Below, in pieces: positions 9,046 through 64,000 of a stretch of 64,000 bases of DNA (positions are counted from its first letter, which is position 1; every line of letters begins with the position of its first letter). The position numbers and the translations under genes are program-made. The notes beneath the pieces are model-generated. The model was given only the letters and a program-made list of their open reading frames with translations. It made no database searches and was not told where the DNA came from. Source of the stretch: Octopus vulgaris (taxonomy: Eukaryota). The stretch spans positions 32,426,001 to 32,490,000 of the forward strand of contig OX597832.1 in assembly GCA_951406725.2 (NCBI GenBank). The letters are read 5' to 3'.

Positions 9046-9076
9046 TTAATACTGATAATAATTACCATTACTAACA

Positions 9077-9146
<70 letters not shown>

Positions 9147-9202
9147 CATTATTATTATCATTATTATTATTATTATCATTATTATCATTATTATTATTAT
9201 TA

Positions 9203-9245
<43 letters not shown>

Positions 9246-9331
9246 CATTATTATCATTATTATTATTATTATCATTATTATCATTATTATTATTATTATT
9301 ATTATCATTATTATTATTATTATCATTATTA

Positions 9332-9374
<43 letters not shown>

Positions 9375-9481
9375 CATTATTATTATTATTATCATTATTA
9401 TCATTATTATTATTATTATCATTATTATTATTATTATTATCATTATTATTATTATTATCATTATTATCATTATTATTATTA

Positions 9482-9548
<67 letters not shown>

Positions 9549-9575
9549 CATTATTATTATTATTATTATTATTAT
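8907..9575. repeat. Compound trinucleotide array (CTA)n-(CTG)n-(AAT)n then (ATT)n with periodic ATC
   Basis: Direct reading; the strand switches from AAT to ATT near 9075. Confidence 0.97.
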
Positions 9576-9814
9576 AGTTGAAGAGTTGATTATCTCTTGT
9601 GGAGTTTAGGAATAGACAGGTTTGAATATTTAATGGTTTAGAGATTAAATAAATAAAGTAAACTTATATGTATTAATAATTTTTCATGAGCATAGCAATA
9701 ACAGCAAGAAGAAGAAGAAGAAGAAGAAGAAGAAGAAGAAGAAGAAGAAGAAGAAGAAGAAGAAGAAAAAGAAGAAGAAGAACAACAACAATAACAGCAA
9801 CAACAAAAAGAAGA

Positions 9815-10170
9815 GGGAGAAAGAAATCAAACGATGGTGGATCATAGATATAGCATGTCCAGCTGACAACAAGGTATGTGATAAGGAAAAAAGAAAAGTC
9901 GATAGATATAACAGGTTAGCTCGGGAGGTTAAGCAGTTGTGGTCGATGAAAGGTGGTAGTAGCTCGGGGAATAGTGAGTAAAACCCTTAAGAAGTACATG
10001 GAACAAATAGGCGTTACAATAAGGGTGGAGTATTTGCAGAAAACAGCACTGCTTGGGCCCGCTCCAGTACTCCGGAAGGTGCTCGAAAAATAAGGGTTGT
10101 TACATTAGTACACTGGTAGTGAACAGCTGGCAACGTCGTACAACTCCAACGTTAGAAGCTGTGAAAAGAC
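9815..10170 (+). mobile_element. R4/Dong-clade non-LTR retrotransposon 3' fragment (restriction-like endonuclease domain, frameshifted)
   Basis: From 9841: IIDIACPADNKVCDKEKRKVDRYNRLAREVKQLWSMK / VVVARGIVSKTLKKYMEQIGVTIRVEYLQKTALLGPAPVLRKVLEK* (stop 10091-93). This matches the R4-clade RLE and LQKxALLG terminus. CAA/TAA repeats flank both sides. Confidence 0.8.
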
Positions 10171-11279: not shown

Positions 11280-11695
11280 GAAAAAACAACAAAATTATGA
11301 ATGAAAGGGCATATGCAAAAACAGGAAAAACAGAAAAAAACAAATTTATGAATGAAAGGGTATATGTAAAACAGAAAAAACCCCAGAAAAGAAACAACAA
11401 AATTATGAATGAAAGGGTACATGTAAAAACAGAAAAAAAAAAGAAAAAAACAAAATTATGAATGATAGGGTATAGGTAGAAACAGGGAAAAACAGAAAAA
11501 AATTATTATTGAACGGGTATATTTAAAAACAGAAGAAAAGCAGAAAAACAAAATTATGAATGAAAGGGTATAGGTAAAACAGAAAAACAGAAAAAACAAA
11601 ATTATGAATGAAAGGGTACATGTAAAAACAGAAACCCTCAGAAAAAACAAAATTATGAACGAAAGGGTATATGTAAAACAGAAAAAAATACCCTG
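11280..11695 (+). repeat. Minisatellite, 8 units of ~50 bp
   Basis: Core 'aaattatgaatgaaagggtatatgtaaaacagaaaa' at ~11291, 11342, 11399, 11452, 11499, 11550, 11598 and 11649. Confidence 0.92.
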
Positions 11696-28834: not shown

Positions 28835-29830
28835 TAGATGATGACAGTGTTGCACCGAGCAAGTTCAGTGATACTGGTTTGTCTCCAGGATGTCTTTAAC
28901 CACCAAGGGACCAGCACAAACGGTGGAGATGGAACAAACAATTCAATGATGTGGTCATGGAGTGTTACTACATGATCAACCCTGTACACGAAAATGGTTC
29001 TCATATTAGGGAATACCGACCACGTATGCATGATCAATGGAGAGAAAGAAGATTGTTTCAACTCAAGGAACAGAGATTGTTTGATCAAGCCAGAGCAATA
29101 AAAAAAATAGTTGGTTCACAGAAGTAGAGTTCGAAGCTATCAAAAAACGGGTATTGGAGAAAAGCAGCAGAGGAAACAATGAAAGTTCAGTTCTTACTGA
29201 TAGAAGTAATCTCATAGGAGAGAACAGAGGTGAGATCTCTAATAAACCACAGGAAAGAAACAGTGATAGTTTGATCGATGAGAAACTTATAGATGGTCAA
29301 GAAGAAGATAATAAAACTAATGGTGACATGACAGATGGCCAAAAGGCAATCTACGACAGAATAAAGGCAAGGCTACAGGAGAACGTTAGCGACATTATTT
29401 GCAACCGTAAGAAGGTTTATCGCTGGAAATTGAAACAAGAAACGACAAATGTGAATGAAATTCGGATATACATCAGCGAACAAAGATACTGGACGCAAAA
29501 CAGGGAGGATAATATTGAAAGAAATGGACTGAAACAGCGCCGCATTTCTAAGAGTGCAATACGACCAAAAATTAAAGGGATACCAGCAGAATAAGTTATT
29601 CATAGTAGATCAGAAGATATCTAAAAAGCAATAAATGGAGAGTGTACAGATAAAAAGCTGATACCAGATAACATTGAAAGTTAAAGGTTTTACAGTGACA
29701 TGTGGAGCAAAGACAAGGAGCACAAGAAGGATGCAGAATGGTTGCAAGGACTGAAACAAACAGCAGTCTGTCCAAAACAGGCAGAACTAATCATTTCAGC
29801 TAGGAATTTGAAGGAAATCAGAAACAAAGG
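28835..29830 (+). mobile_element. R4/Dong-clade non-LTR retrotransposon 5' portion (N-terminal and pre-RT regions, decayed)
   Basis: RWRWNKQFNDVVMECYYMINP...EYRPRMHDQWRERRLFQLKEQRLFDQARAIKK / WFTEVEFEAIKKRVLE (~28920-29160), and IPDNIES*RFYSDMWSKDKEHKKDAEWLQGLK (~29660-29755). It begins immediately after an (AAT)n tract. Confidence 0.72.
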
Positions 29831-47934: not shown

Positions 47935-48605
47935 AGTCCTCTGGACATCAACAACATCAGTGCCGGATTAGGCACTAATATGTGATGTATCGTTGACGGG
48001 TGATTCGGCTTTTATGTAACTACTGGATGTCCATCGGTGATAAATGCAAAACAAGGCGAGAACATGCGATCTAGCAGTTCTGGCGGCTGTAGTAGACGAA
48101 TCTTGTTTGTCAATGATATAAATACGAGTGCCTTTATGCACCACGAAACCATATAAGAGGTCCTCTCGTGCTAAATAACGTAGTACTCTTTGTCATACAT
48201 ATGTTTGTGTGTGCGTGTGTGTATGTGCGTATGTGTGTGTACATATATATATATATATATACATATATATGCGTGTGTATTTGGGTATATATATATAAAT
48301 ATAAATGTATATGTATATATATATATATATAATTAATTAATAAGGGTGAGAGAATTAGATACTAATTTAATAGTATATCCATTCAACACCAAGTGGCCCA
48401 GTGCTCCGAGAAACCTGGATTATTATAATATTTTATAATATATTATAATATTTTTACAAAAATAAATATAAGAGAGTGGTCACATATGGCTCACTCTAGC
48501 ACTAGTTAATCCAAAAGGTTTCAACCACAAAAATACATGTTTCCCATGAAAGTCAGTACGATTGTTAGCTCACACGAACAGGGCAAATAAAAAATAACAA
48601 AAATA

Positions 48606-48700
48606 CAGATTATTTTGGGACAATTGTTTCGCTATTAATGAATTAAATGTAATTTTACTTACAAAAAAATCCACTGTAGCTCCTCAGCCAAAACTATCTG
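48606..48700 (-). ncRNA. Type I hammerhead ribozyme (inverted second copy)
   Basis: Plus strand reads ttttgg-ga-caattg-tttc-gcta...tagc-tcctcag-ccaaaa (48613-48693), the reverse complement of the 49599-49680 motif with core and stems intact. Confidence 0.87.
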
Positions 48701-49591
48701 GATGAAATCCACTCAATCACACGCCAGATTTTACCATAACGATAAATACACGTGTGGTTCAATTGATTACATCCGACGTTATAATTCAAATGCCCCTACT
48801 AACAGCGCGCCAAACTTTCAGGGAAACAAATACTACATTTAGAAATAAATGTAGCATAATTATAATTGATTAATAAGGGTGAGAGAATTAGATACTAAGT
48901 TAATAGTATATCCATTCAACACCAAGTGGCCCAGTGCTCCGAGAAACCTGGATTATTATAATATTTTATAATATATTATAATATTTTTACAAAAATAAAT
49001 ATAAGAGAGTGGTCACTATATGGCTCACTCTAGCACTAGTTAATCCAAAAGGTTTCAACCACAAAAATATTTCGTGGATTATATTTATTTTTGTAAAAAT
49101 ATTATAATATATTATAAAATATTATAATAATCCAGGTTTCTCGGAGCACTGTATTTTTGTTATTTTTTATTTGCCCTGTCCGTGTGAGCTAACAATCGTA
49201 CTGACTTTCATGGGAAACATGTATTTTTGTGGTTGAAACCTTTTGGATTAACTAGTGCTAGAGTGAGCCATATAGTGACCACTCTCTTATATTTATTTTT
49301 GTAAAAATATTATAATATATTATAAAATATTATAATAATCCAGGTTTCTCGGAGCACTGGGCCACTTGGTGTTGAATGGATATACTATTAACTTAGTATC
49401 TAATTCTCTCACCCTTATTAATCAATTATAATTATGCTACATTTATTTCTAAATGCAGTATTTGTTTTCCGTGAGAGTTTGGCGCGCTGTTAGTTGGGGC
49501 ATTTGAATTATAACGTCGGATGTAATCAATTGAACCACACGTGTATTTATCGTTATGGTAATATCTGGCGTGTGATTGAGTGGATTTCATC

Positions 49592-49687
49592 CAGATAGTT
49601 TTGGCTGAGGAGCTACGAGTGGATTTTTTTGTAAGTAAAATTACATTTAATTCATTAATAGCGAAACAATTGTCCCAAAATAATCTG
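49592..49687 (+). ncRNA. Type I hammerhead ribozyme
   Basis: TTTTGG(49599-604)-CTGAGGA(49605-611)-GCTA...TAGC(49612-15/49659-62)-GAAA(49663-66)-CAATTG-TC(49673-74)-CCAAAA(49675-80). All core positions match CUGANGA/GAAA/UH. Stem I extends via CAGAT/ATCTG. Confidence 0.88.
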
Positions 49688-49829
49688 TATTTTTGTTATT
49701 TTTTATTTGCCCTGTTCGTGTGAGCTAACAATCGTACTGACTTTCATGGGAAACATGTATTTTTGTGGTTGAAACCTTTTGGATTAACTAGTGCTAGAGT
49801 GAGCCATATAGTGACCACTCTCTTATATT

Positions 49830-49865
<36 letters not shown>

Positions 49866-53676: not shown

Positions 53677-54896
53677 GACATTTCTTATAGATTTCCCCTG
53701 CCCCACATATCAAGGATCGGGATAAACGAAACTTAGAATAATTATTGGTCTTTCTCTACATAGCCCCCACAAATGGTCACACACTTCACCCCTCGCTATA
53801 TTCAGCTGTGAAGACCTCTTTTGTACCAGTCGGTAGGATGCATCTGGATCCAAGACTTTACACCGGAAATATCCGAAAATTGCTTCCCTTTCAAAAATGA
53901 GTTCATGGTTGGAAAGAGGTGGAAGTTACATGGTGCGAGGTGGGGAGAGTAAGGGAGAGCAGGAAGGATTTCATAGCCGCGGGTATGTGCTTCCATCTGG
54001 GCAACATGCGCATTGTGAACTGAGGTGTTGTCTTCGAGGAGGTGGACTTCTTTGACCAGCATGCCACGCCCCTCTGCTTTGATGGCGTCCCGCATTTTCT
54101 GCAGCAGAGAAGCATACTTGTTAATAATTGTGGTGTCCTTTTCCAGTAAATCCATCAGCATTAATCCGCTCTGGCCCCAAAAGACTGCGAGCATCACCTT
54201 GACCGCTGAAAGCTGGACACGAGCATTCTTTGGCGGTGGTGAGTTATCATGCTTTCAATGCTTATACTGGACTTTAGTCTCAGGATCATAGTGTTGGCCC
54301 CATGTTTCAACCTGTACGATATGTCTATCGAAAAAGTCCTCGTTTTCTCGGCACATTGCTAAAAGTGCCTGGGAGCAATTGCCTCGTTCTTGCTTCTGAA
54401 AAGTTGTGAGCATCCGGGGAATTCCTCGTACAGACCGCTTCCACATGTTCAAATGTTCGTGAATGACTTTTTCCACGGATCCTACACTTATCGTCACTTC
54501 TTGGGCTAGTTGCCAAATAGTTATGCGGCGATCCTCCAAAATGCCAGATTCCACTTTACGGGTGGTGTCCTCATCAATGGCGGAATATAGTCGTCCAGGA
54601 GTAGGAGTGTTTTCTACCGATGTCCGACCACATTTGACCTGGCGATGTTAGTGCTTGACTACGTCGTATGATGTTGCATCGTCACCATAAACTTCTTTCA
54701 TCTCATCAAAAGTCTCTTTTGGTGTACAACCTTTCAAGTATTAGAACCTGATCGCTGATCTGCATTCAACTGCCTCCATTATAACACCTTAGTCCAGTTC
54801 CGCAGCCGTAAAAGACAAACGAATACTAGTGAAATGCCGCAATTTACAACCTGACATGCCCAAGCTCTGTTTCCTGCAATAACCGAACACCCCTCG
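53672..54896 (-). mobile_element. Mariner (DD34D) DNA transposon, near full-length, inactivated; transposase pseudogene ~54779-53742
   Basis: MEAVECRSAIRF*YLKG...EDRRIT...GIPRML...VETW..HYDPETK...VFWGQSG...EDNTSVH...PYSPHLAPCNFHLFP...GGYVEK. The right end is 'cacccctcg|ta' and the left end is a degenerate 'ta|taaggga'. Inserted in (TA)n. Confidence 0.92.
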
Positions 54897-62934: not shown

Positions 62935-64000
62935 CTTAGATATCTCAGATTGGATTCGGCCATTGTCAGCCCATGTCATGACAAACTCAATAGCAACACC
63001 TAGGAAAGTCTTTTAGTTAGTTATTTCGTGATATTATGGCCCACTTAAGCAGAGAATCGTTGTCAGTTGAGACGTATCCAGGTGTAGGTGGTTTATCCGG
63101 TATTTCCTGGAGGAATTTGTCCAAGTAACGTTTGAAAGTTGTGGGGTATTTTTCTACTTTAATTTCACTCAGGATATCACTGAAAAGAACATGACTTTTG
63201 CAGTGAAGAAATTGTGTCGCAATGTTCTTATATGACGTGATCTCGATCTTTGAAGGGGACGCATTGCACAGAAGCCTAGTCTTGGGTGAATTGTAAACAT
63301 AATGCCGATAGCGTGTGGATAATATTGATGGAATCTGTCCCACATGGTGCAAATAACGTATCTCTCACGGCGGTATTTCAGAGAATGGAGCTTCAGCTGT
63401 TTATGTTGAGCCCAATTATCAAGTCCTATTATGCCATATATTTTTTTTTGTTATTGATATTTATGGTGCTTCGATCTCCATTGTCTTTTTTTTGTAGGAG
63501 ACCTGAATGTGCAGCAGTATTCGTGGTGGGGCCTAGCAAATGCGGAGAAGAGAGGGATGATGGTTTCATGATCCCGGGATTGAAAAGTTCTGAGGATCCA
63601 TGAGAACATTCTGCGGGCAACATCAACTTTTTTGTTGATGTGCACACTCCAGCTAAGGTTGCTGTCGACAGTTACACCTAAGTTCCTGATATTAACCGAC
63701 GGTTCAAGTAGGTCTCCCGACGGTAGTGTATATGGTTGTTTGAGTGTGCCCCCTTTTCCAAAGTGGATGAGCACAGATTTTTCTTTGTTCAACTGCATAT
63801 TCATTTTTTGTGTCCACTGGGTTAGTGCTCAGAGATCCGATTGAAGCATGGTTTGATCATAAGCTCCCTTAATGACTTTCTGGAGCTTAGAATCATCTGC
63901 AATTATTTTAATGGTGCTATGTTCAATGGAATCTGCAATGTCATTGATATAGACAATAAAAAGAAGTGGACCCAGCACAGTAGTCTGTGGGACTCCACTG
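62935..64000 (-). mobile_element. CR1-clade LINE: reverse transcriptase C-terminal part and 3' end, decayed, continuing past the window edge
   Basis: SGVPQTTVLGPLLFIVYINDIADSIEHSTIKIIADDSKL...IRNLGVTVDSNLSWSVHINKKV...RPHHEYC...FKRYLDKFLQEIPDKP, with stops and frameshifts. Confidence 0.9.

Follow-up and report, generated by a model that had tools for sequence, protein, structure and literature searches.

A tandem hammerhead repeat family of the octopus as a probable Penelope-like retrozyme whose arrays may record copying from a circle

Described retrozymes and the octopus insertion

The closest described systems are the metazoan non-LTR retrozymes of coral, mussel and axolotl (Cervera and de la Pena 2020, PMC7229834). 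As set out in the available text of that paper, these are low-GC (<45%), ORF-less tandem units of 170-400 nt that occur as dimers to multimers, carry a type I hammerhead with a short palindromic helix III, form a circle predicted to pair with itself, and share their genomes with Penelope-like elements (PLEs). The same text goes no further than proposing rolling-circle reverse transcription by PLEs, and contains no analysis of insertion ends, targets or haplotypes. The tandem hammerhead units of vertebrates, 51-972 bp long, also co-occur with PLEs (bioRxiv 10.64898/2026.07.22.740005); the accessible part of this preprint samples no mollusc, discusses local amplification and offers limited life-cycle evidence, and reports that 24 of 57 Xenopus families match known repeats (PLEs were matched in 21 of 22) and that one of nine predicted Xenopus retrozyme dimers cleaved in vitro. 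The helper enzyme of animal retrozymes, and the circle as a template, are open questions in the literature; according to a 2020 review, the repeats carry no motif that indicates a helper (PMC7761336).

The second point of comparison is the EN+ PLEs of the Neptune/Nematis type (PMC8557442, PMC11167929). In the portions of these papers available, the insertions are 5'-truncated, lie in microsatellite or AT-rich targets, and include a second copy that is inverted and also 5'-truncated, a tail being present at just one of the two ends (Craig et al. 2021, PMC8557442); the in vitro basis is a pair of internal RT start sites, downstream of the hammerhead, with both target strands being cut and extended (Frangieh et al. 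2024, PMC11167929). Non-autonomous PLEs of the Chlamys group, MRC1 for one, give multicopy head-to-tail insertions, as far as the available description goes (PMC8557442).

The insertion considered here lies in a 64-kb window (the whole stretch of DNA analysed) on G000:C19 of a 2.8-Gb octopus genome. Comparison of the window with itself reveals two head-to-head arms of one ORF-less unit, with (TA)n on both sides. The repeat spacing is 533-536 nt in both arms, as the first-pass annotation had reported; the unit is taken as 535 nt (GC 32.5%), and its numbering starts at window 49298. The features are as follows.

48243..48331, strand unassigned: (TA)n-rich left flank, the target microsatellite
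48328-49069, minus strand: left arm overall, unit order 461-535, 1-535, 1-133
48328..48460, minus strand: left-arm 'tail', unit positions 1-133 (running 133 to 1), which stops at the fixed 3' end A
48462..48993, minus strand: full unit of the left arm
48606..48700 (outer limits approximate), minus strand: left-arm type I hammerhead, core 48687-48681, predicted cut after 48619
48995..49069, minus strand: left-arm 5'-truncated partial unit, positions 461-535
49070..49151, plus strand: inversion junction, a 9-nt filler and a 73-nt extra piece (49079-49151) that spans end B to unit position 62
49149-49833, plus strand: right arm overall, unit order 388-535, 1-535
49149..49296, plus strand: right-arm 5'-truncated partial unit, positions 388-535
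49298..49833, plus strand: right-arm full unit, which stops at the fixed 3' end B
49592..49687, plus strand: right-arm type I hammerhead, predicted cut after 49674
49796..49821, plus strand: predicted hairpin immediately 5' of end B
49834..49860, strand unassigned: (TA)n right flank, the target microsatellite

The arms do exceed unit length, as annotated, although each has merely 1.3-1.4 units; the circular permutation that had been described holds for the 5' ends, which vary, but not for the 3' ends, which are fixed rather than arbitrary. The lack of an ORF is borne out by a three-unit natural array, whose longest ATG frames are 19 aa (sense) and 52 aa (antisense). The filler and the 73-nt piece at the junction probably arose by template switches. 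This copy is a mosaic (5 of 24 sites are discordant), and its left arm shows some 1-nt deletions such as long-read errors produce. Because there is a single hammerhead per strand, one in each arm, no cut-to-cut monomer can be released from it; the window copy is a dead end for circle production, contrary to the earlier suggestion that it probably forms circular RNA. Elsewhere in the window, two frames at 53802-54647 (minus strand) resemble what we take to be a broken mariner-type transposase; frames at 63017-63828 (minus strand), 29085-29594 (plus strand) and 9649-9986 look by eye like fragments of LINE-type reverse transcriptase/endonuclease, and 9076-9575 and 11283-11687 hold a long (ATT)n-derived array and a minisatellite with a 51-nt period.

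With the retrozymes of PMC7229834, as that paper's available text describes them, the octopus unit has in common the hammerhead type, the short palindromic helix III, the low-GC and ORF-less tandem organization, the self-paired predicted circle and the presence of PLEs in the genome; it differs in its length, in a very long stem-loop II, and in that the circle is here a prediction. The unit is thus long for the class, as first remarked, when set against 170-400 nt, but lies inside the vertebrate range given in the accessible part of the preprint. With EN+ PLEs it shares, on the published features cited above, 5' truncation, the inverted truncated second copy, the one-end tail, two internal starts downstream of the hammerhead and the kind of target; unlike them it has no ORF, a canonical hammerhead rather than the minimal PLE type, and a tail of ~133-140 nt (about 105-114 in sister families) versus the 30-40 nt given for PLEs. 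The Chlamys elements, unlike the octopus unit, have a 3' end that resembles an autonomous family and belong to a group described as mostly lacking hammerheads. In the literature, no description was found of an octopus hammerhead or retrozyme family of this kind, or of a comparable haplotype test (Repbase and Dfam were outside the scope); a 2026 annotation of octopus repeats counts 31 PLE families as recently active, and the word 'ribozyme' is absent from its main text as available (PMC13282606). The family is new, while the class and its proposed Penelope-like link are already in print.

Copies, 3' ends and the search for an autonomous partner

Exact matches to the 3' half of the ribozyme (32 nt) number 2064 genome-wide, with none for the reversed control, and end A has 800 exact genomic matches; for end B only the 325 forward matches are usable, as the 745 on the reverse strand are inflated by overlapping matches. 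A search with the unit gave 1480 candidates, and among the best 40, which were scored, full-length matches are 96-99% identical and lie on many contigs. The family is young and consists of roughly a thousand dispersed loci; the genome-wide copies and tandem arrays that the first-pass annotation had anticipated are present, with arrays of up to ~13 units. The 109 insertions analysed comprise 40 top hits, 32 insertions taken in order of position on C1 (3 are common to both sets), and a replicate of 40 loci picked on end A, with tests fixed in advance, of which 6 ran off the fetched stretch and were left out; samples picked by similarity or by exact motif are biased toward young, intact copies. 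In the position-ordered set, insertions range from 0.6 to 13.4 units (median 1.8) and 14 of 32 are inverted.

A sister family, with older copies, has a 499-nt unit that is 67% identical (327/491 columns) and homologous ends. In two motif searches at least five related families were recognized by eye, all of them ORF-less and with the same two ends; no autonomous partner was among these relatives. Family copies, sister families and autonomous PLEs are often seen side by side in one (TA)n tract (L007:2385-2830, L094, L215, L124). Other hammerheads with a long stem-loop II are found at L008:128, L012:1249, L030:409, L197, L198, L207, L214, L216 and L223-L230; by profile search these families are unrelated to the 535-nt unit, and several run into (TA)n. 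The genome carries a diverse set of long-loop-II hammerheads.

The 3' ends of the family fall at two fixed sites, A at ~133 and B at ~535 in the unit, which are ~135 nt apart, and 105 of 108 run into (TA)4 or longer, compared with a background of 7.9% in the window. Among inverted insertions, 38 of 39 have one A end and one B end, the exception ending at 449. In the replicate the figure is 21 of 22 (19 by script and 2, with a very short A arm, by eye; the remaining one ended at 507), with a further 12 insertions scored by script as single-armed. Combined, 59 of 61 inverted insertions are A+B, and none of the 61 is A+A or B+B. The 5' ends (n=112) are scattered over the unit, and just 2 of them lie near the cut (373-383), compared with ~2.3 expected if they were uniform; an apparent grouping of such ends close to the cut among the top hits was discarded since it is absent from the position-ordered set (4/49 at 351-400). 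A hairpin is predicted to precede end A as well as end B, and both are kept in the sister family; these are candidate RT-positioning structures. As read from the insertions, this two-end signature points to a helper of the Penelope-type class.

The genome contains a young autonomous PLE with a 781-aa frame that encodes RT and GIY-YIG; its two fixed ends lie 40 nt apart, in (TA)n, with one of each in its two head-to-head copies, L043 and L066, and its CX4CxxC linker fits Neptune/Nematis as these are defined in the available text of PMC8557442. Several (TA)n-targeted RT+GIY-YIG Penelope-like families are seen (L064:900-5960, L031-L076). One such family is very young, with many 781-aa frames, each preceded by an upstream frame, and by eye its pLTR has an apparent U3-A8 variant hammerhead.

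Unlike the Xenopus retrozymes, as far as these are described, the octopus unit gave no PLE match: no sequence likeness was detected to any of 46 PLE locus records, 45 of which were taken from the 150 scored among 6136 GIY-YIG candidates. The linkage to Penelope RT/GIY-YIG ORFs envisaged in the first-pass annotation also did not appear, as tblastn of 6 PLE frames against 127 + 45 + 12 locus records found no RT/GIY-YIG remnants joined upstream of the repeat; the matches were confined to L094, where the PLE frame beside a sister copy is a separate inverted insertion, and to L196/L220, where the hammerhead is of another family, and all were rejected as partners. Also rejected was a pair of hammerheads 3.47 kb apart on C7 (L219, G000:C7:3967500-3976000), a local duplication without a PLE frame. 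(The duplication at L219 is 3.4 kb long at 99.2% identity, with ~100 bases between the copies, and is possibly an assembly gap duplication.) Copy number, stem covariation (below), the two fixed ends, the (TA)n target and the PLE-like head-to-head arms all agree with the earlier view of a non-autonomous element moved by a Penelope-type RT, and the assignment of the element to the non-LTR retrozymes, as a non-autonomous Penelope-like element, can be stated with high confidence.

The hammerhead and the folded unit

Each arm has one hammerhead with a complete core, as annotated, and a scan of the 64-kb window with a descriptor finds these two only. On the plus strand, stem I pairs 49598-49604 with 49675-49681 (6 Watson-Crick pairs and a G-U) and can be extended to 12 pairs with one mismatch, so the annotated extension stands apart from that mismatch; the core is 49605-49611, stem II (GCUA/UAGC, as first read) pairs 49612-49615 with 49659-49662 around a long, structured loop II, GAAA is at 49663-49666, and the cut is predicted after the GUC that ends at 49674. 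Stem III has 2 bp and a palindromic AAUU loop. Alone it is predicted to be unstable (+2.4 kcal/mol), while an intermolecular duplex reaches a predicted -6.4; dimer-type hammerhead designs with such a stem III are described in the available text of PMC4209133.

Rfam, the check put forward in the first-pass annotation, yielded no match in the 64 kb at gathering score and no hammerhead match at E<=10. At the latter threshold, a search over 1561 bases gave 7 sub-gathering matches (miRNA models on the inverted junction and U4 look-alikes), which were dismissed. A likely cause of the Rfam miss is the long loop II. This miss, together with the 1-nt deletions in the left arm, is what would favor an assembly artefact or a chance look-alike, an explanation to which virtually no weight can be given, since the same architecture recurs at 109 independent loci with different flanks and in related families, with covarying stems.

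Over 182 segments, C3, G5, A6 and A9 of the core are invariant, which bears out the conservation expected of true copies; G8 differs in 1 segment and U4 in 7 (C, at 2 loci), G12 is G in 192 cases and A in 2, and the free N7 takes all four bases. Stems I and II covary across sister families, with 5 of 13 stem pairs altered on both sides. In 24 chosen variants from two families, stem cells are paired in 90.7%, versus 79.7% when shuffled and 30-46% when the partners are slid, although the cells are not independent events because the 24 variants form two related groups. By these comparisons of sequence, selection acts on the ribozyme. On the other side, one very common subfamily has stem I with a C-A mismatch. 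We infer ribozyme activity from the sequence.

The cut-to-cut monomer, folded as a circle, has an MFE of -155.7 compared with -106.6+-6.7 for 40 shuffles (z=-7.3), with predicted pairing probabilities of at least 0.96 for stems I and II; in the predicted fold, stem I and a long rod bring the monomer ends together. When predicted pairs that differ in the sister family are considered, 37 of 60 still pair versus 29.4 expected (p=0.017).

Two other sequence features of the unit may be recorded. A GTRAGT (GTAAGT or GTGAGT) is kept in loop II across families (window 49637-49642; loci L079-L106, L189-L218), also lies within a small hairpin, and fits the consensus of 5' splice sites; beyond the ribozyme there is a pyrimidine tract, and no clear splice acceptor was seen alongside it. 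This GTRAGT may be left over from an intron in a PLE 5' UTR, or may form a loop that makes a tertiary contact. On the 5' side of the ribozyme, window 49478-49545 contains what we take to be E2F-like (TTTGGCGCGC), CHR-like (TTTGAA) and E-box (CACGTG) motifs, which are partly kept in the sister family and whose bases also build a long RNA helix; this segment is a possible internal cell-cycle or germline promoter.

Array haplotypes and the nature of the template

The evidence on the template comes from variation among units. Nearly all units of an insertion, in both arms, have one haplotype, and insertions differ from one another: 45 haplotypes are present in 57 fully covered insertions. Discordant site-locus cells number 24 of 565, compared with 132+-12 expected, 21 of 955 (352+-21 expected) in a second set, and 21 of 1882 (428+-30 expected) in the replicate. 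(Divergence and variant counts, in the first sets and the replicate alike, omit unit positions 1-45 and 322-336 and segment edges; L071 is omitted from figures given without it, and L071 and L173 are omitted from mutation spectra.) Divergence within an arm, between opposite arms and between loci is 0.33, 0.31 and 2.6% without L071, and 0.24, 0.21 and 3.8% in the replicate. L171 has 13 segments with zero differences, and L161 has 15 singletons and 1 shared variant in 15 segments. In the replicate, 21 locus-private variants are present in every covering segment. An excess of sense T>C among private variants found in all units (8/16 versus 12/86, p=0.003, post hoc) was dropped after the replicate gave 1/11 versus 3/30.

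These data bear directly on whether arrays grow in place, as satellites do, by unequal crossing-over or slippage after a PLE has inserted a short copy. Such local amplification is discussed in the accessible part of the vertebrate preprint (bioRxiv 10.64898/2026.07.22.740005), and local duplication does occur: the 12-unit array L071 (G000:C28:10732700-10739030) has a 4-unit higher-order period with 8 subset-shared variants, although it could represent either local duplication or a multimeric circle. Yet divergence within arms equals that across arms, which dates from insertion (Wilcoxon p=0.61 over 15 paired loci), many insertions have more than one unit in each arm, and variants confined to one unit outnumber those shared by a subset, at 37 versus 5 in 14 arrays and 30 versus 2 in the replicate, with L161 a case in point. 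Since differences are mostly singletons and the arms have diverged equally, most arrays were already long when they arose, from a single sequence; gradual local amplification is disfavored, and the process discussed in the preprint is contradicted for most arrays here. For most arrays this model is largely refuted, and as a general account it is very improbable.

If arrays are born long, the template could be an uncleaved, linear, multimeric transcript of a homogeneous array, copied by the same enzyme, with the ribozyme acting rarely or being otherwise employed. Seamless cut junctions and read-through would fit such a template equally well, and 16 of the 32 position-ordered insertions, which have at least two same-sense hammerheads, could be sources. 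In addition, for an Anolis PLE studied in vitro, cleavage is not required for insertion and unprocessed RNA is the dominant template, according to the available text of PMC11167929. At L108 and L109, the outermost units of both arms share an allele that is missing from the inner units, and these mirror alleles fit a multimeric template or gene conversion (the overall mirror test says little: 12 variants are shared and 33 are not, L108 and L109 are the only cases with at least 5 segments, and a single diverged segment of L173 accounts for 14 of the 33). However, linear copying can only shorten arrays and should transmit the mosaics of their units, whereas the 57 insertions carry 45 haplotypes, every one of them nearly pure, 12-13-unit arrays included, and the 21 private variants found in every segment require a one-unit bottleneck followed by re-lengthening. 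Because linear copying can neither lengthen arrays nor purify new variants, and a monomer circle does both, the circle is favored, and the linear multimer is considered unlikely. Of the circular or multimeric template proposed in the first-pass annotation, the haplotype tests thus favor the circular monomer over the multimer.

A one-unit template might also be read repeatedly if the RT jumps from the 5' to the 3' end of a cleaved, unligated monomer that stem I closes into a non-covalent circle. End-jumping accounts for one haplotype per insertion, the predicted fold holds the two ends together through stem I and the long rod, and the plus arm of L243 begins at the cut site, as fits a cleaved linear template. 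Template jumps by non-LTR RTs usually add or lose bases. At the cut junction, however, there is no indel in 195 units of the first sets and 1 in 79 in the replicate (1/274 in total), and 5' ends are not enriched at the cut, so that the RT seems to read across a seamless junction; end-jumping is accordingly held to be distinctly improbable. L071, the window copy, L108/L109 and L243 nevertheless indicate that multimeric or cleaved templates, local duplication or gene conversion act sometimes.

Taken together, these analyses make it probable that the template is a monomer circle, copied by a Penelope-type enzyme in a two-site, target-primed, rolling-circle reaction. Arrays with at least two same-sense hammerheads would be transcribed, and the ribozymes, which probably pair up as dimers by way of the palindromic stem III, would excise one unit for a host ligase to seal into a circle. 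Both strands of the (TA)n target would be nicked by a Penelope-type RT/GIY-YIG protein that is probably dimeric, and priming would occur at the two AU-rich internal sites, A and B, ~135 nt apart on one circle. How far the RT then travels around the template would be random, and the outcome would be one or two head-to-head arms of identical units; the window copy would be a two-armed product too short to yield a circle of its own. On balance we also lean, somewhat more cautiously, toward the full statement that the young arrays are a record of a Penelope-type RT dimer performing two-site, target-primed, rolling-circle reverse transcription on one ribozyme-made circle.

There are also possible traces of transcripts. 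None of the listed sequencing runs is recorded as RNA; run X6, which is RNA only by guess, has the whole unit in one 565-nt contig (535+30) that joins back on itself after 535; such a looped contig could come from a circle, a homogeneous tandem transcript, or DNA. In X1 and X3, loose ends depart from the unit through clusters of A>G (5 of 10 letters) or of T>C (4/29; 7/30), a pattern that hints at ADAR hyper-editing of both strands, as inverted arms would invite.

The family is young and abundant enough for a mechanism to be read from the genome, and the single haplotype of each array suggests that a one-unit template is read repeatedly. It also offers a substrate for an in vitro PLE assay, with a defined circle, two priming sites and a (TA)n target. 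If the arrays are indeed the record of a circle, the life cycle proposed for animal retrozymes would gain direct evidence at the sequence level, from a lineage of five or more ORF-less families that is long-lived and under selection for the entire RNA structure.
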